Source: a virus (lineage: Duplodnaviria; Heunggongvirae; Uroviricota; Caudoviricetes). From it: a DNA stretch of 7,280 nt. Below are positions 1-5,518 of the stretch, one piece after another. The stretch's first letter is position 1. Each line of letters opens with the position of its first letter. Made by a program: the position numbers and the translations under genes. The stretch lies in the IMG/VR virus record IMGVR_UViG_2700989509_000014; one strand, given 5' to 3'. The notes under the pieces are model-generated. The model was not told the DNA's origin. It searched no databases and saw only the letters and a list, made by a program, of their open reading frames with translations.

Positions 1-839
1 TTCATGGCTATGTCATGACTGACGGCAAACTCCATGCCGATGATACCCCGGTCCAGGTACTGCTGCCGGGTAATAAGAAGACGAAGACCGGGCGGTTGTG
101 GGCGTATGTTCGTGATGACCGCAATGCCGGGTCAGCGTTGGCACCTGCAGTGTGGTTCGCTTACAGCCCGGACAGGAAAGGCATCCATCCGCAGACTCAT
201 CTTGCCTGCTTCAGCGGTGTGCTGCAAGCGGATGCGTACGCCGGGTTCAACGAGCTGTATCGCAATGGTCGGATAACGGAAGCTGCCTGCTGGGCTCATG
301 CCCGCCGAAAGATCCACGATGTGCACGTCCGCATCCCGTCAGCACTGACGGAAGAAGCCCTGGAGCAGATCGGTCAGTTGTACGCCATAGAGGCGGATAT
401 AAGGGGAATGCCGGCAGAGCAGCGGCTTGCTGAACGTCAGCGAAAAACGAAACCGCTGTTGAAATCCCTGGAAAGCTGGTTGCGTGAAAAGATGAAGACC
501 CTGTCGCGACACTCAGAGTTGGCGAAGGCGTTCGCGTACGCACTTAACCAGTGGCCGGCACTGACGTACTATGCGAACGATGGCTGGGTGGAAATCGACA
601 ACAACATCGCTGAAAATGCCCTGCGGGCGGTCAGTCTGGGTCGTAAAAACTTCCTGTTCTTCGGCTCTGACCATGGTGGTGAGCGGGGAGCGCTACTGTA
701 CAGCCTGATCGGGACGTGCAAACTGAATGACGTGGATCCAGAAAGTTACCTTCGCCATGTGCTTGGCGTCATAGCAGACTGGCCGGTCAACCGGGTCAGC
801 GAACTGCTTCCGTGGCGCATAGCACTGCCAGCTGAATAA
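1..839 (+). CDS. IS66-family transposase (TnpC-type), C-terminal ~279 aa; 5' end truncated by the window edge (reading frame enters at position 3)
   Basis: Open frame from position 3 with no upstream stop inside the window; the ORF-track translation (…[11 protein letters not shown]…[10 protein letters not shown]…[10 protein letters not shown]…) is what I recognise as the conserved C-terminal region of IS66 transposases. The internal ATG at 15 is unlikely to be the true start. Confidence 0.8.
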
Positions 840-1055: not shown

Positions 1056-1162
1056 TGAAGGTGATGGGGCAGGGATCAGAATTGCGTGGTGTAGCAAGTT
1101 GTATCTATCAATTTTCAATAAATACAATTGGTTATGTGTTTTTAGGTGGAGCGATCGTGAGG

Positions 1163-1189
1163 CAAAGAAAACCCGGCGCGGTGGCCGGG
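1163..1189 (-). terminator. Rho-independent terminator closing the minus-strand two-gene cassette
   Basis: On the minus strand: CCCGGC-caccgc-GCCGGG (6-bp GC stem, plus coordinates 1172-1189) followed directly by TTTTCTTT (plus 1164-1171). It starts about 15 nt after the stop codon of the 1205-2134 gene. There is no T-tract on the plus-strand side, so it is unidirectional. Confidence 0.65.
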
Positions 1190-1204
1190 CTGAAGGGGCT
1201 CATT

Positions 1205-2134
1205 CTAATCGATTGATTTAATATCCCATTGAGGTCGAGAAACCAGAGTGTATCTGGGCTTGCCCTTACCAACAGTTTTTTTCAGGAACGTGGCTGTTGC
1301 AACGCTTCCTAAGTGCTTGTTTATAATATCTGGGTCATCTACAGCTTTGTCAATGCTAGCGGTTCTGATATCAGTGTTACCTAAAACTATAAATTCACAT
1401 TGGCGCTTGTTAGGAAGAGTTCCCAAAAATATAACGTTCTCAATAATTTTTTCCTGCTGAATGTTATCATTGCTGAGATGTTGATATACAGCTTCAAGCT
1501 GTTTTGGCTCTCTAAAAACGATGCTAAAACCTTGGCTTTTAAGTGTAAAAACTGTTTTATTTTCATGCAGATAATGAATGAATGCTCTGATTTTATCTAA
1601 GGCCCGAGAGTCTAAGTTTTCTATAGCATCAGACAATTCTTCATCATCATTATCCAAGCTTGCCTGAAATATTTTTCTGGCCTTATTAATAGCTTTTGCT
1701 ACTGGGGTTTCTTCATCGAATTCAAGAGGAGCATCAGGTCTAAACTCTTCAAGTACGAATCCGAAAGAACCACGGGCTGACGCGGTAATCATGAGATGAT
1801 TATTTTCTATGTTTGGTATCTTGCCTGATGCAGGAAGTGGGCCATTGAAAGAGGTTGCCAAGTAAGCTATTGCATCATTAAAACAAGATATAGCTTTTGT
1901 TCCAAATACTGCTGAAATGCCATGCGTGCCAACTACTGTTGGGCCTCTAAAAGTTAACACAGCATGCGTAGGTTCATGTTCTCGAACGTCAGCTTGTGAA
2001 ATTAATCGCTCAACTTTCTCCAGACGGTCTTCTAAGCTTTTTCGGCTAATAGAATGACTTGTTGGCATATTTTTTAATAGATTACTTATTTGCTCGCGCT
2101 CACTGAGAGCGAAAACATAATCATTACGATTCAT
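1205..2134 (-). CDS. Hypothetical protein, 309 aa; distal gene of a two-gene cassette downstream of cI; candidate defence/exclusion component, function unknown
   Basis: Long ORF with ATG at 2134 preceded by GAGGGGG 7 nt upstream on the minus strand. Its start overlaps the stop of the upstream gene by 4 bp (ATGA). AT-rich (about 33% GC in a sampled 60-mer). Ends just before an intrinsic terminator. No Walker motif, no obvious transmembrane segment, no family I can name. A weak R-x6-H string (RAFIHYLH) is noted but not relied on. Confidence 0.75.
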   Translation of the reverse strand: MNRNDYVFALSEREQISNLLKNMPTSHSISRKSLEDRLEKVERLISQADVREHEPTHAVLTFRGPTVVGTHGISAVFGTKAISCFNDAIAYLATSFNGPLPASGKIPNIENNHLMITASARGSFGFVLEEFRPDAPLEFDEETPVAKAINKARKIFQASLDNDDEELSDAIENLDSRALDKIRAFIHYLHENKTVFTLKSQGFSIVFREPKQLEAVYQHLSNDNIQQEKIIENVIFLGTLPNKRQCEFIVLGNTDIRTASIDKAVDDPDIINKHLGSVATATFLKKTVGKGKPRYTLVSRPQWDIKSID

Positions 2135-2709
2135 TGTTTGACCCCCTCAGTAGTAGCCGAATTAAGTATAGTCATTGCCACAACATCAAGTTGTGGGTTT
2201 AACGGGATTTGGATAAATCCCTTCCACGACAGATCGCGTCTATGTGCCCACATACTGTACCAGTATACAGTCATTTCAACAAGCTCATGACTTGGTAGAT
2301 TAAGTTCTTGGAAGTAGGAATCTACGAAAAACTCCTTCTTAACAAAATCATGATCAAATAGCTCTGGCTTTCTACCGATTACGATTGCATCATTATCGCC
2401 ATTACTGAATTGAAAAAAGGTCACAACATCGACATCATTCGGTGGCCTTTTTTCAATAAGTTCAATATGTTCTGTGAAGCTTCCATCTACCCACTGAAAA
2501 CCTTCAACTAGCCCTGCTTGAGTGAGTGAAACACGAAAGTTAAGAAAACCCTTAAGGATTTTAATCCTTGCAGGGCTAAGCGAAAAAGTACTAACAAAGC
2601 GTACTATATCCATTTTGTATGGGGAACGAGTATGGCTTGTAGGATCAGCCTCGTCTATTGGGGGGATTAACCCCATCTCATTCCATAGAGAGACAGTTGG
2701 TATACTCAA
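2131..2709 (-). CDS. Hypothetical protein, ~192 aa (TTG start at 2709; alternative ATG at 2676 gives 181 aa); proximal gene of the cassette; possible nucleotidyltransferase-like fold, tentative
   Basis: ORF with TTG start preceded by AAGGT 5 nt upstream on the minus strand; the internal in-frame ATG at 2676 has a weaker GGAA signal. Contains W-V-D-G-S-F, then 15 residues, then D-V-D-V-V, which resembles the hG[GS]…DhDh signature of Pol-beta-type (minimal) nucleotidyltransferases; this is pattern resemblance only. AT-rich. Lies 114 bp downstream of the cI stop on the same strand. Confidence 0.7.
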   Translation of the reverse strand: MSIPTVSLWNEMGLIPPIDEADPTSHTRSPYKMDIVRFVSTFSLSPARIKILKGFLNFRVSLTQAGLVEGFQWVDGSFTEHIELIEKRPPNDVDVVTFFQFSNGDNDAIVIGRKPELFDHDFVKKEFFVDSYFQELNLPSHELVEMTVYWYSMWAHRRDLSWKGFIQIPLNPQLDVVAMTILNSATTEGVKQ

Positions 2710-2823
2710 TGCTTAACCTTTATAACGAACTGAATATTCGGCAAAATATTGTTTTTAGGTATTGGCTGCTGTGCTTGTCGGACGGTTATTTCGTGTCACC
2801 CAAACGTTTCTTCTGGCCACTGG

Positions 2824-3531
2824 TTACCAGCTATGTGATGACCAGAATACTCTGCCAATAATCCTTACTGTTTCATGAAACTCATCTCTATCCATTACTT
2901 CATCAGGGTACTCTTCGCGATTTATTGATCTGATTATCACGGATGTAGGTGTGGCTATTAATGTCTTTACTCTTAGTAAATCAGATTGACAAATAGCGTA
3001 GGTTTTACCATCTCTGATGGTGGTGTCTTGCGTGTTGACTCCAACAACATCACCATCGTGAAGGGTTGGCTCCATGCTTTGGCCTATCACCCTAACCAGC
3101 TTGGCAGAGCTTTCAGATACCCCCATCTTTTTCAGATAGTACTTTCTGAAAACCAAAGAGAACTCAGATGATTCCTCTAACTCACAGCTACCACTCCCGG
3201 CGGAAAGAGAAACATTAAGAAGAGGCAATGCGACAAACTCGTCATCGTTTCTTTTTATGTCCTCCCATACCACCGCTTTTAAAGATGACTCACGCACATT
3301 CGATGGCTCTTCATGTGCACCATCCCTCATTTCACCAATACCTGAGCTAAGCCATTCAGGGCGTACTTTTAAAGCATTGGCTAACTCAACCATCTTTCGA
3401 GATCCGTTTGTTTTACCGGATGACATCTTCTGTATGGCTGGCTGAGATATTCCAACCATGTCAGCAAGCTGTGATTGTGACACCCCTGCTGAGCTCATGG
3501 CTGCATTTAGTCTTTCTGCGAATGTTTTCAT
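2824..3531 (-). CDS. cI: Phage CI-like repressor (N-terminal HTH, C-terminal S24/LexA-type autopeptidase), 235 aa from ATG 3531
   Basis: HTH segment SQSQLADMVGISQPAIQKM. Ala-Gly candidate autocleavage site (LSAGSG). Ser nucleophile in GQSMEP and a downstream Lys (LLRVKTL), as in LexA/CI S24 peptidases. Divergent from a cro-like gene across an operator region. The ORF track starts at a TTG (3561), but that extension would overlap operator site 1; the ATG at 3529-3531 (MKTFAERLN…) is the more likely start. Confidence 0.85.
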   Translation of the reverse strand: MKTFAERLNAAMSSAGVSQSQLADMVGISQPAIQKMSSGKTNGSRKMVELANALKVRPEWLSSGIGEMRDGAHEEPSNVRESSLKAVVWEDIKRNDDEFVALPLLNVSLSAGSGSCELEESSEFSLVFRKYYLKKMGVSESSAKLVRVIGQSMEPTLHDGDVVGVNTQDTTIRDGKTYAICQSDLLRVKTLIATPTSVIIRSINREEYPDEVMDRDEFHETVRIIGRVFWSSHSW

Positions 3532-3543
3532 ACCCACAAATCT

Positions 3544-3606
3544 ATAACTACGGTTATCCAAAGTAAAATAACAAAGGTTATTGCTATTTTTTATAACTTG
3601 AGTTAT
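3544..3606. promoter_or_regulatory. Tripartite operator (OR-like): three perfect ATAAC-N4-GTTAT palindromes between the divergent cI and cro genes; overlapping pRM/pR-type promoters inferred
   Basis: Exact sites ATAACtacgGTTAT (3544-3557), ATAACaaagGTTAT (3568-3581) and ATAACttgaGTTAT (3593-3606), spaced 24 and 25 bp start to start, like lambda OR3-OR2-OR1. Candidate rightward promoter TTGCTA (3581-3586), 17-bp spacer, TATCTT (3604-3609), or alternatively a -10 TATAAG at 3614-3619. Candidate leftward -10 is TATAGA on the minus strand (plus 3541-3546). Promoter hexamers are guesses; the palindromes are exact. Confidence 0.65.
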
Positions 3607-3973: not shown

Positions 3974-4273
3974 ATGGAACAAACAAGTTACAGCAAACTA
4001 TCACAGCGCGACGTTGATCGCGCAGAAACAGATTTACTCATCAACCTGTCAACGCTTACACAGCGCGGTCTGGCAAAGATGATTGGCTGTCATGAATCGA
4101 AGATAAGCAGAACGGACTGGAGATTTATTGCTTCGGTCTTGTGTGCTTTCGGAATGGCATCAGACATCAGTCCGATTAGCAGGGCTTTTAAGTATGCGCT
4201 TGATGGACTCACCAATAAAAAACGCCCGGTGTGCAAGACCGAGCGTTCTGATCAAATACAAATGGAATTTTAA
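3974..4273 (+). CDS. cII: CII-like transcriptional activator (lambda CII homolog), 99 aa
   Basis: C-terminus LTNKKRPVCKTERSDQIQMEF closely matches the lambda CII C-terminus (…ILTNKKRPAATERSEQIQMEF); a central HTH-like segment is present; position after cro/nutR is canonical. Stop TAA at 4271-4273. Confidence 0.8.
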   Translation: MEQTSYSKLSQRDVDRAETDLLINLSTLTQRGLAKMIGCHESKISRTDWRFIASVLCAFGMASDISPISRAFKYALDGLTNKKRPVCKTERSDQIQMEF

Positions 4274-4295
4274 CAACATCCAACGAGGTAATTAT

Positions 4296-4568
4296 ATGCG
4301 AAACAAAGGCTTTAATCCACCTGATACACACAAAGAAGCTAAGCGTTTGCGCTTCCTTCGTTCCATTGATGAAAGAACTCAAATCTCTTTTGTGAAAGTT
4401 GCCAGAACTGAGCTTCTGAAGGCTGAGGCGAGGGCGTTGCTCCCGTCTCTACCAAAAGAGGAGGGATATACGTCCATTCCAAACGCATTTCTGGAAAAGC
4501 TGCTCAAAGAAGACATATCCGTAAGTCAGTTTAACGATGTTCTTAAGGTCTTTCGTCAAGGCAGGTAG
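4296..4568 (+). CDS. Small hypothetical protein (90 aa) between cII and the O-like gene
   Basis: ATG at 4296 preceded by GAGG (4285-4288) with a 7-nt spacer; ends with TAG at 4566-4568, 2 nt before the O-like start. The ORF-track entry 4128-4568 is the same frame extended upstream across cII and is not the real N-terminus. Basic and charged, no recognisable motif. Confidence 0.55.
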   Translation: MRNKGFNPPDTHKEAKRLRFLRSIDERTQISFVKVARTELLKAEARALLPSLPKEEGYTSIPNAFLEKLLKEDISVSQFNDVLKVFRQGR

Positions 4569-4570
4569 TT

Positions 4571-5518
4571 ATGAGCAATACAGCAAAAATCTACGATTTC
4601 AGCGCCGCACACGAGCGCAGGAGCAACAGGATGGAGAACCAGAAAACTGGTTACATTCCGTTGTACCGGAGCATTCTGAAACAGTCATGGGCGAAAGATG
4701 TTTATCTTCGCACCCTGTGGGAAAACCTTCTCCTGAATGCCGCCAGAAAGCCATACAAAGCGAATTTCAAAGGTCATGAATGGCATCTGCAACCCGGTCA
4801 ACTGGTTGTGACAGCAGCTGATTTAGGTCTTCAGTTATGCGACAGGCATGGCAAGCCAGCAAGCCGCGATCAGGTTGAGCGGATGCTTCAGGTTTTTGTG
4901 AAAGAGGGGGTGATCACCATTGATGGAGAGAAGCAAAAAGGTCGTGTGATTACCATCACAAATTACCATGAATATGCTCAAAAAATGGACGATTCACCCG
5001 CACATGAAGCCGCACAAACAACCGCACATGATGCCGCACATGACGAAGCCAGCAATGGCGCGGCTTTCAGAGTACATGCCGCACATGAAAGCGCACATGA
5101 AGCCGCACAAACAACCGCACATCATGAACAAGAAGGTATTAACAAGAATATAAATAATACCCCCCTACCCCCCAATGGGGGAGGCGATGGGCAGGTTAAA
5201 CCTGAACGTCGCAAGGCAGAACGAATCGACTACGAATCCTTCCTGAACGCCTACAACACCGAAGTCGGTGGCAGACTTCCACACGCTGTTGCGGTCAACG
5301 AGAAACGCAAACGCCGCCTGAAGAAAATCATCCCGCAACTGAAAACGCCAAACGTGGACGGTTTCAGAGCGTATGTCAGGGCGTTTGTACATCAGGCCAA
5401 GCCGTTTTACTTCGGAGACAACGACACGGGCTGGACGGCTGATTTTGATTACCTGCTGAGGGAAGACTCGTTAACGGGAGTTCGGGAAGGGAAGTTTGCA
5501 GACAGGGGGATTGCATGA
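4571..5518 (+). CDS. Replication initiation protein, lambda O-like N-terminus with a conserved phage replication-protein C-terminal region, 315 aa; carries the origin iterons internally
   Basis: N-terminus [11 protein letters not shown]… parallels lambda O (MTNTAKILNFG…). A His/Ala-rich linker is encoded by the iteron repeats. Directly followed by, and overlapping by 4 bp with, a DnaB-family helicase gene (P22 gene 18 / gene 12-type arrangement). Confidence 0.75.
4998..5181. repeat. Putative phage origin of replication: iteron array, AT-rich tract and C/G palindrome inside the O-like gene
   Basis: A 31-bp perfect direct repeat cgcacatgaagccgcacaaacaaccgcacat at 4999-5029 and 5092-5122. At least eight copies of the 10-mer (c/g)cgcacat(g/c)a between 4998 and 5123. 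Then an AT-rich stretch (5125-5159, …aacaagaatataaataata…), then C6-TA-C6-AAT-G5 (5160-5181). The organisation mirrors ori-lambda, which also lies inside O. Confidence 0.6.

Follow-up and report, generated by a model that had tools for sequence, protein, structure and literature searches.

Several two-gene conflict modules are built around a nucleotidyltransferase (NTase). In AbiE (AbiEi/AbiEii) and MenAT, the Pol-beta-fold NTase is the downstream toxin (~280-300 aa, DUF1814) and its partner is a wHTH antitoxin, so that the antitoxin gene precedes the NTase gene. In MNT-HEPN type VII toxin-antitoxin (TA) systems, the NTase gene comes first. The Shewanella pair SO_3166/SO_3165 (PDB 8xeh) is of this second type, in which the gene for a small NTase with a GS/DxD/D active site precedes that of a larger partner and is coupled to it. 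The two-gene systems Hailong (HalAB) and Clover (CloAB) follow a related logic, in which the NTases HalB and CloB negatively regulate a toxic partner and the effector is constitutively restrained through a nucleotide or oligonucleotide product (PMC13434031). PDC-M63AB, a candidate system in PADLOC, is a computational prediction without a mechanism. In its sole test, deletion of PDC-M63AB from E. coli NILS69, where it is prophage-encoded, produced no defence phenotype against 10 virulent phages (bioRxiv 10.1101/2024.12.20.629700).

In lambdoid prophages, the region between cI and N is a mosaic hotspot that houses rexAB and bstA and is expressed in lysogens (PMC8585504). Here we describe a gene pair at such a site in a 7,280-nucleotide stretch of a Caudoviricetes genome (IMG/VR record IMGVR_UViG_2700989509_000014; hereafter the window). 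A first-pass annotation had proposed from short motifs that the pair encodes an NTase and a HEPN-like partner. The features of the locus are collected in Table 1, in which the NTase gene is gene A and the partner gene is gene B.

Table 1. Features of the gene pair and its surroundings in the window.
Feature	Coordinates	Strand	Description or basis
Mobile cassette (spacer, gene A, gene B, terminator)	1073..2822	-	Homology limits, G+C
Intrinsic-terminator-like hairpin	1170..1191	-	8-bp stem, 6 G-C pairs, U-tract; starts 14 nt past gene B stop
Gene B, 309-aa partner, unassigned family	1205..2134	-	Soluble; N-terminal helical hairpin, middle domain, helical region, OB-like barrel
ATGA stop/start overlap of genes A and B	2131..2134	-	4 nt, read from sequence; translational coupling
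Gene A, 192-aa DUF6932 protein	2131..2709	-	TTG start; predicted minimal Pol-beta-type nucleotidyltransferase
Spacer, cI stop codon to gene A, 114 nt	2710..2823	-	Part of cassette
cI-like repressor, HTH_3 + Peptidase_S24	2824..3561	-	Pfam; directly upstream of pair

A DUF6932 protein with a conserved, predicted nucleotidyltransferase active site

The reading frame originally called for gene A is correct, and the same 192-aa CDS is annotated in E. coli CE10, where RefSeq names it 'DUF6932 family protein'. Gene A matches the Pfam DUF6932 model (PF22014) with 93.6 bits (gathering threshold 27) over profile positions 3-141 of 142, and this domain is present in 78/78 gene A homologs. Pfam describes PF22014 as a 'Family of unknown function' and says no more, and a Pfam scan of 36 gene A homologs at E<=10 returned DUF6932 and no other family.

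Both motifs that had suggested an NTase are present, WVDGSF from residue 73 and DVDVV from residue 92, though 13 residues separate them and not 15 as first given. In 96/96 non-redundant homologs, drawn from methanogenic archaea and a wide range of bacterial phyla, the candidate catalytic residues are unchanged: G76-S77, D92, D94 and, as the third carboxylate, D130. Further invariant residues are R48, R59, Q72, W73, E83, R88, Y149, W150, H156, W162 and G164. Because the pattern G[GS]-x9-16-D-x-[DE] arises in only 6% of shuffled 192-aa gene A sequences and the GS, DxD and D130 positions never vary among the homologs, we conclude from the sequences that the NTase-like signature is real and lies far beyond chance.

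A predicted model of gene A (pLDDT 90.6) places these residues on the strands expected of a Pol-beta NTase. The hG[GS] motif (V74-D75-G76-S77) closes strand 1 (70-76), the [DE]h[DE]h carboxylate pair (D92-V-D94-V) opens strand 2 (93-99) and the third carboxylate, in an h[DE]h motif (V129-D130-S131), opens strand 3 (129-135). The top structural matches by two methods, one of them Foldseek against the PDB, are Pol-beta-fold NTases that include MNT antitoxins, and the CD-NTases CdnB, CdnC, CdnD, CdnE, CdnG and DncV are also among the matches. Searching PDB sequences with individual proteins or profiles of both genes returned nothing meaningful. Pentatricopeptide matches to the gene A profile were rejected as artefacts in which many sub-threshold repeat matches are summed. 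Conservation and the predicted fold together indicate that gene A is very probably an active minimal Pol-beta-type NTase.

The appearance of MNT antitoxins among the structural matches has no counterpart at the profile level. An hhalign comparison of 45 DUF6932 sequences with 24 MNT sequences (PF18765/PF01909) gave a probability of 1.2% with the motifs unaligned, and a local hhalign comparison of DUF6932 with a thin, 5-sequence MNT alignment gave no link. Two features set gene A (~190 aa) further apart from MNT proteins, a helical insertion and an extension of the N-terminus (W9...PP17...RSPY31).

The partner is a soluble protein without HEPN features

Gene B begins with a helical hairpin (residues 3-46). 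Its middle domain holds an invariant loop G122-S123-F124-G125-F126 (GSFGF). Residues 144-191 are helical, and at the C-terminus lies an OB-like barrel rich in beta structure (~225-297) with conserved G238, P241, R244, E247 and F248. A Pfam scan of 45 gene B homologs at E<=10 gave scattered matches, the commonest being SnoaL (7/45, best 4e-4). BAG-domain matches to gene B (E 0.03) were set aside as weak helical matches. Neither gene A nor gene B encodes a transmembrane segment. Gene B represents a new soluble protein family with an OB-like C-terminal barrel.

The idea that this partner is HEPN-like came from the sequence RAFIHYLH, an R-x6-H motif that does occur at residues 183-190. Its suggested meaning does not hold. 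Shuffled versions of the 309-aa protein are expected to hold 1.4 R-x4-6-H patterns each, and 78% of them contain at least one. Of 88 non-redundant homologs, 53 have R183 but only 5 have H190, and no R-x4-6-H position is shared by more than 34/88 family members. We found neither a HEPN helical-bundle fold nor a HEPN profile match for gene B, and we interpret the motif in its sequence as a chance match. Of the proposed motif residues, G76, S77, D92 and D94 of gene A are invariant and the R/H pair of gene B is not conserved. We call gene B the 'effector' below as an assumption, since neither a toxic nor a catalytic domain can be recognised in it and it lacks a membrane-spanning segment.

The two genes form an obligate, co-diverging pair

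The suggestion that the two genes are coupled was borne out across the family. In the window, they share an ATGA stop/start overlap, and a GAGGGGG Shine-Dalgarno sequence sits within the 3' end of gene A. An overlap of 4 nt recurs in 82/158 loci and one of 8-14 nt in ~60 further loci, and at every locus the partner directly follows the NTase in the same orientation.

Co-occurrence is close to absolute in both directions. The partner is found at 163/164 uncut NTase loci, and the NTase at 37/37 and 74/74 partner loci. Pairwise identities of NTases and partners correlate (r = 0.79, Mantel 0/999), and the two genes co-diverge. We regard it as virtually certain that genes A and B are an obligate coupled pair. 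The sole orphan seen, at locus L084, is an NTase whose catalytic residues are intact; no orphan partner was seen.

A swappable cassette downstream of a lambdoid repressor

The pair sits directly downstream of a cI-like repressor gene that probably starts with the ATG at 3531; this start yields a protein of 235 aa, the length of its RefSeq homolog. A cassette with 97.9% identity over 1751 bp is found in an E. coli CE10 prophage, which is a different lambdoid prophage with another cI allele, and the homology between the two, which reaches position 2822, ends exactly at the cI stop codon on one side and at position 1073 on the other, so that the cassette is exchanged between cI alleles at the cI stop codon. 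Strain 09-00049 conversely has the same cI allele as the window and a different gene downstream. The G+C content of the cassette is 0.36-0.41, compared with 0.43-0.58 in its flanks. Of 5426 complete E. coli genomes, 8 carry the cassette, with 99.9% identity, and a DNA search of a phage collection gave no match.

A minus-strand scan of the spacer between cI and gene A found no terminator-like or promoter-like site, and the spacer has no RNA structure (fold z-score +0.84). Solely from this lack of a predicted promoter or terminator signal, we infer that the pair is probably co-transcribed with cI, transcription in lysogens reading through from the promoter of the repressor. The terminator-like hairpin that follows gene B has an MFE of -19.8 kcal/mol (z -1.7), and an Rfam search of the whole window gave no match.

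The pair is swappable cargo of the cI-N hotspot and belongs to the same positional class as rexAB and bstA. Like lambda RexAB and Salmonella BTP1 BstA, it fills the slot that directly follows the repressor gene, reads in the same direction and has a terminator at its end. Neither of these systems is related to the window pair in sequence or fold. RexB is a membrane protein, unlike the products of genes A and B, and BstA is a single protein, whereas the window cassette has two genes.

A widespread pair in prophages, restriction-modification operons and chromosomes

The pair is known from at least 585 species-level genomes of bacteria and archaea (methanogens), and DUF6932 comprises ~1,970 clusters at 50% identity. 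It occurs in the immunity regions of prophages, in operons for type I restriction-modification (RM) and on the chromosomes of planctomycetes and archaea. In 20/94 non-redundant loci the gene immediately before it encodes a cI-like S24 repressor, and hsdM, hsdS or hsdR flanks the pair in ~16-17/94. A location within type I RM loci has been reported to predict a defence function (bioRxiv 10.1101/2024.01.29.577857). MNT-HEPN pairs likewise adjoin type I RM genes. At locus L049, an MNT gene adjoins hsdS. From these genomic contexts, we consider a role of the pair in conflict or defence likely.

The closest described system is PDC-M63AB. Gene A matches the PDC-M63A model (38.7 bits, E 2.2e-10), as do 45/45 diverse members of its family (best 8e-15). 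Partners from 45 loci gave 14 matches to PDC-M63B, distributed 8, 3, 2 and 1 over four models (best 1.6e-7), and the window's own gene B matches none of these models at E<=1. From these matches across the two families, both components of the pair appear to be remote homologs of those of PDC-M63AB; given the mere 38.7 bits of gene A against PDC-M63A, profile similarity places the window pair on a distant, divergent sister branch. The term 'DUF6932' and the associated RefSeq accessions and locus tags are absent from the literature that we searched, and the DefensePredictor paper does not mention NTases. A prior description in the E. coli prophage defence screen of Brenes & Laub 2025 (Cell Host Microbe) is possible.

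A tentative model for NTase control and its alternatives

Of the original proposal, an NTase with a coupled partner in a conflict module still stands, on the strength of the invariant NTase residues and the coupling, and its assignment to MNT/HEPN falls with the absence of a HEPN fold in gene B and of a profile link from gene A to MNT. Coupling and genomic context fit a TA or abortive-infection cassette of another kind. Our preferred, though tentative, reading is a prophage-carried TA-like or guard defence module in which the NTase controls its partner. The two-gene cassette would be transcribed in the lysogen from the repressor promoter, and the upstream NTase would constitutively restrain the downstream partner, taken to be the effector. 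It might do so by nucleotidylylating gene B, for which the invariant Ser123 of GSFGF is the obvious candidate site, or by making a nucleotide or oligonucleotide product that is bound by the OB-like domain of gene B, which by inference from Hailong and Clover could accommodate such a ligand. Phage infection would relieve this control and lead to abortive infection or to exclusion of the superinfecting phage. The proposed direction of control and its chemistry, drawn by analogy with the known systems, are possible though somewhat less likely than not. The pointers to direction are weak: the NTase comes first, as in MNT-HEPN, HalB and CloB are precedents for an NTase that represses a toxic partner, and the lone orphan is an NTase with intact catalytic residues, an argument from the single locus L084. 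The lack of a defence phenotype after deletion of the related PDC-M63AB speaks against the model.

The roles could also be reversed, with the NTase as a MenT- or AbiEii-like toxin that nucleotidylates tRNA acceptor ends and the 309-aa partner as its antitoxin or as a sensor keeping it in check until a phage infects. AbiE and MenAT (PMC10435456, PMC11541572) are precedents for such NTase toxins, and these roles would suit an invariant gene A active site beside a gene B without a recognisable catalytic domain, whose OB-like domain could sense phage ssDNA or protein. We nevertheless consider this reading unlikely. The gene order is opposite to that of AbiE and MenAT, gene A is much smaller than MenT and AbiEii and lacks their C-terminal motifs, and the AbiEii profile is matched by 1/45 gene A family members at E 0.028 only, which is no meaningful AbiEii/MenT match; the NTase at L084 persists without a partner despite its intact catalytic residues. 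A CBASS- or Pycsar-like scheme, in which the NTase is silent until infection and then makes a second messenger that activates the partner through its OB-like barrel or GSFGF domain, would agree with the CD-NTases among the structural matches and with the NTase-plus-effector layout of minimal type I CBASS (PMC13434031). It appears quite unlikely, with gene A at about half the size of a CD-NTase and without the helical C-terminal half, no match of either protein to the PADLOC CD-NTase or Cap models, no known sensor (SAVED, STING) or effector domain in gene B, and a strict start/stop overlap that suggests a stoichiometric complex and not an enzyme with a receptor.

In a bona fide MNT/HEPN type VII TA system, the partner would be a HEPN RNase neutralised by AMPylation; the conservation data refute such membership, and we hold this to be exceedingly improbable. 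The pair might alternatively have no immune role and serve its mobile element, through addiction of the prophage or RM island, anti-defence, or nucleic-acid modification or repair. The lack of a defence phenotype after deletion of the related PDC-M63AB would fit such a role, cI-N cargo and RM-embedded genes include addiction and anti-defence genes, and nucleic-acid metabolism makes frequent use of OB folds and NTases. Occurrence of the same pair in contexts as unrelated as prophages, type I RM loci and planctomycete or archaeal chromosomes argues against a role specific to the phage life cycle, however, and the pair lies on the lysogenic transcription unit, whereas anti-defence genes are usually found among early lytic genes. 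A non-immune role is in our estimation decidedly unlikely.

Returning to NTase control of the partner, a broader and rather doubtful reading is that the pair represents a new, widespread NTase-controlled immune module, in which a DUF6932 NTase would keep an unknown soluble, OB-like effector inactive until infection breaks that control and abortive infection follows. Its two conceivable routes are nucleotidylylation of the GSFGF serine, which would make the pair a non-HEPN type VII TA system, and a Hailong-like oligonucleotide guard ligand.

If the pair is a working defence or TA module, DUF6932 and a partner family without a recognisable domain would both gain a function, and this would validate the PDC-M63 candidate of PADLOC. 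The lambdoid cI-N slot would acquire a third, mechanistically different occupant beside rexAB and bstA. Small NTases that regulate toxic effectors covalently or through a ligand, as in MNT-HEPN, Hailong and Clover, would then include one whose effector is neither a HEPN nor a membrane protein. Should the pair not serve defence, it would still be an unusually strict and ancient two-gene unit.

A two-gene cassette in the rexAB slot of a lambdoid prophage

ORF calls and Pfam matches show that the window is the part of a lambdoid prophage that governs immunity and replication. The order of ORFs on the minus strand places gene A, a 192-aa DUF6932 ORF, and gene B, its 309-aa partner, directly downstream of the cI-like repressor and on the same strand. 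In lambda, this slot right downstream of cI is the position of rexAB. The G+C content of the gene pair is 0.36–0.41, against 0.43–0.58 in its surroundings.

Features of the window (nucleotides) and of the two predicted protein models (residues)
Feature	Position	Strand	Remarks
ISEc8 (IS66-family) element, 3' part	1 to ~1060 (left end, 1-1072)		99% identity with copies in thousands of E. coli records up to ~1053-1063
Transposase ORF	15-839		Pfam alignment only from profile position 66
Gene B	1205-2134	minus	309 aa
Gene A	2131-2709	minus	192 aa
cI-like repressor	2824-3561	minus	HTH_3 and Peptidase_S24
Cro, CII, O-like replication protein, DnaB-type helicase	in that order	plus	CII: PF05269, E 2e-34
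ORF between cII and the O-like gene	4128-4568	plus	146 aa; no function assigned; overlaps cII 3' end in a different frame
O-like replication gene	4571-5518	plus
Short direct repeats in the O-like gene	4998-5130		encode a His/Ala-rich repeated peptide
Gene A model (AlphaFold)	46-64; 70-76; 82-85; 93-99; 107-127; 129-135		helix; strand; short helix; strand; helices; strand
Gene B model, N-terminal helical hairpin	3-46
Gene B model, mixed domain			invariant loop G122-S123-F124-G125-F126, plus G64 and F77
Gene B model, three helices	144-191
Gene B model, C-terminal part			beta-rich

The ISEc8 end adjoins the cassette, ~10–20 nt from position 1073, and the element took the place of whatever separated the cassette from the N/cIII side of the prophage. 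The incomplete transposase alignment reflects either a cut at the window edge or a truncated gene. The direct repeats in the O-like gene cross-match that gene's homolog in strain 09-00049 at shifted positions and, by analogy with lambda, could be origin iterons.

Genes A and B form an obligate pair

Genes A and B share an ATGA overlap, preceded by a GAGGGGG ribosome-binding site. When each species was represented by a single genome, at least 585 genomes proved to encode a relative (Proteobacteria, Planctomycetota, Myxococcota, Chlorobi, Acidobacteriota, Verrucomicrobiota, Clostridiales and the archaea Methanothrix and Methanomicrobiaceae), and IMG/VR viral contigs contained 102; a profile search of 1.84 billion representatives returned 1,970 clusters at E<=1e-3. 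A partner HMM matches 163 of 166 fetched NTase loci, and two of the three remaining loci are cut by contig ends. Searching in reverse from the partner, an NTase lies immediately upstream in 37/37 and 74/74 viral loci. The partner is downstream on the same strand in all 158 measurable loci, with a start/stop overlap of 4 nt in 82 and of 8–14 nt in ~60. The pairwise identities of protein A track those of protein B (r = 0.79, a value reached by 0 of 999 permutations), and the profile of the enterobacterial partners recovers those of Bremerella (Planctomycetota), Burkholderia and Proteus at E 1e-84 to 1e-95. Genes A and B are thus an obligate, translationally coupled and co-diverging pair.

One locus alone, in Cupriavidus sp. 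D384 (L084, 5875–6618), has space for a partner but encodes none. Its orphan DUF6932 gene retains the GS/DxD/D residues, has a divergent C-terminal tail and is followed by unrelated genes; this state is probably the outcome of gene B deletion.

Gene A encodes a predicted nucleotidyltransferase

The first-pass annotation had recognized a nucleotidyltransferase-like signature in gene A, correctly so, and the case for it is now far stronger than that annotation could have made it. WVDGSF (residues 73–78) and DVDVV (92–96) are separated by 13 residues, rather than the 15 first reported, and a G[GS]-x9-16-D-x-[DE] pattern arises in 6% of shuffles of the protein. G76, S77, D92, D94 and a third aspartate, D130, are invariant in all three sets inspected (36 homologs, 96 non-redundant homologs from fetched loci and a diverse set of 45), as are R48, R59, Q72, W73, E83, R88, Y149, W150, H156, W162 and G164. 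In a confident AlphaFold model (pLDDT 90.6, pTM 0.87), GS ends strand 1, DxD starts strand 2 and the third Asp starts strand 3, the defining layout of the Pol-beta NTase fold. Structure searches of the model point weakly in the same direction: the top Foldseek match is 2rff (E 0.044), and none reaches 1e-3.

Gene A scores 93.6 bits with DUF6932 (PF22014), where the cut-off is 27; it also matches phrog_9194 and has a weak match to PADLOC PDC-M63A. DUF6932 was the sole Pfam match among 36 family members, and PDB sequence and profile searches gave no genuine match. A comparison by hhalign with 24 aligned MNT proteins (PF18765/PF01909) returned a probability of 1.2%. A sequence-level bridge is missing. 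On the evidence as a whole, we infer with high confidence an NTase fold with an intact active site and do not assign gene A to the MNT family. Gene A very likely encodes an active nucleotidyltransferase.

The partner is a new, predicted OB-like protein rather than HEPN

The proposed HEPN-like R-x6-H in gene B (RAFIHYLH, residues 183–190) is present as a chance match. An R-x4-6-H motif is expected 1.4 times per shuffle of the protein and occurs at least once in 78% of shuffles. Of 88 non-redundant homologs, 53 retain R183 and 5 retain H190, and no R-x4-6-H position is conserved. We therefore rejected gene B as a HEPN protein.

Pfam, NCBIfam, PADLOC and PDB sequence searches with gene B gave no significant match, and neither protein has transmembrane segments. 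The gene B model (pLDDT 85) has four parts. Its strand pattern would place an OB match at about residues 225–297, so that the conserved G238, P241, R244, E247 and F248 would flank the first loop of the barrel. Weak Pfam matches to SnoaL-like polyketide cyclase occur in 7 of 45 partner homologs (best E 4e-4), and PADLOC PDC-M32A is matched by 7 of 45 (best 1.3e-6). The three helices and following beta-strands could form an NTF2/SnoaL-like cone, instead of or besides the OB barrel.

The pair is mobile cargo in two defence hotspots

Of 94 non-redundant loci, with neighbours confirmed by Pfam, 20 have a cI-like HTH/S24 repressor as the immediate same-strand neighbour upstream, and in ~16–17 the pair is framed by same-strand type I restriction-modification (RM) genes (hsdM or hsdS upstream, hsdR downstream). 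The cI–N region is a mosaic hotspot that carries rexAB and bstA and is strongly transcribed in lysogens (PMC8585504), and defence functions are over-represented among genes that lie within type I RM, BREX and DISARM loci (bioRxiv 10.1101/2024.01.29.577857). The pair is mobile cargo in two classic, literature-supported defence hotspots, a context that suggests a role in conflict.

The cassette occurs in 8 of 5,426 complete E. coli genomes at 99.9% identity. In strain CE10 it lies within an intact prophage beside torS, likewise right after the repressor. Homology to CE10 covers exactly 1073–2822 (97.9%) and ends at the cI stop codon; cI alleles and replication genes differ. Other E. coli prophages share the cI-cro-cII-O-dnaB module at 96.7% identity from 2808 or 2822 on, and prophages with this module hold a different, 98-aa hypothetical gene in the slot (strain 09-00049, L168 4166–4462). 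Positions 2808–2822 are a sharp mosaic junction, and the cassette travels as a single unit. A terminator-like hairpin lies 14 nt beyond gene B, and no terminator, promoter-like site or stable structure was found between cI and gene A; these signals are consistent with read-through from cI.

In Proteus mirabilis prophages (L005–L007, 4614–4949), a 111-aa DUF3024 gene sits between the cI-like repressor and the pair, so that the slot has room for more than a single cargo gene. A type I RM locus with the pair in a Lautropia sp. MAG (L049, 2289–4103) has a classical MNT-type NTase (PF18765/PF01909) just upstream of hsdS in the same stop-to-stop reading frame; two different small NTases thus adjoin in one RM island.

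Possible mechanisms

Minimal NTases have no substrate-binding domain of their own; they typically act on the product of an adjacent gene or together with it, and HI0073/HI0074 and MNT-HEPN are examples. In Hailong and Clover, NTases constitutively restrain a toxic partner (PMC13434031). Given this habit and precedent, the NTase-first gene order (common to MNT-HEPN) and an orphan pattern in which the only orphan is an intact NTase and no partner is found alone, we tentatively favour, at somewhat below even confidence, a model in which gene A would keep gene B inactive until infection relieves this control. Gene A might nucleotidylylate gene B, with invariant Ser123 as a candidate site, or might act through a ligand, a nucleotide or an oligonucleotide, that the OB-like domain binds. 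CBASS-like inducible signalling is a rival reading that we consider quite unlikely. In another, which we regard as unlikely, gene A would be a MenT/AbiEii-like toxin and gene B its antitoxin or sensor.

The pair proposed by the first-pass annotation survives as a coupled NTase and partner; its HEPN half and MNT membership do not, and a true MNT/HEPN system is highly improbable. Both components have remote PADLOC matches: PDC-M63A is matched by 45/45 diverse NTases (best 8e-15) and PDC-M63B models by 8, 3, 2 and 1 of 45 partners (best 1.6e-7). This makes the pair a divergent sister branch of PDC-M63AB, itself a two-gene candidate. The window's own partner matches neither PDC-M63B nor PDC-M32A. 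In the single test so far, deletion of PDC-M63AB in E. coli NILS69 revealed no defence against ten virulent phages (bioRxiv 10.1101/2024.12.20.629700). That result would accord with a non-defence function, a reading that we consider improbable.

The cassette is thus already flagged indirectly as a computational candidate (PDC-M63); we found no mention of DUF6932 or the pair's RefSeq accessions in the openly accessible literature. It is a widespread two-gene unit of uncharacterised kind, a DUF6932 NTase with a new OB-like partner, which a lambdoid prophage carries at the position of rexAB. Its context suggests that it belongs among NTase-based conflict modules, perhaps with a guard or type VII-like mechanism.
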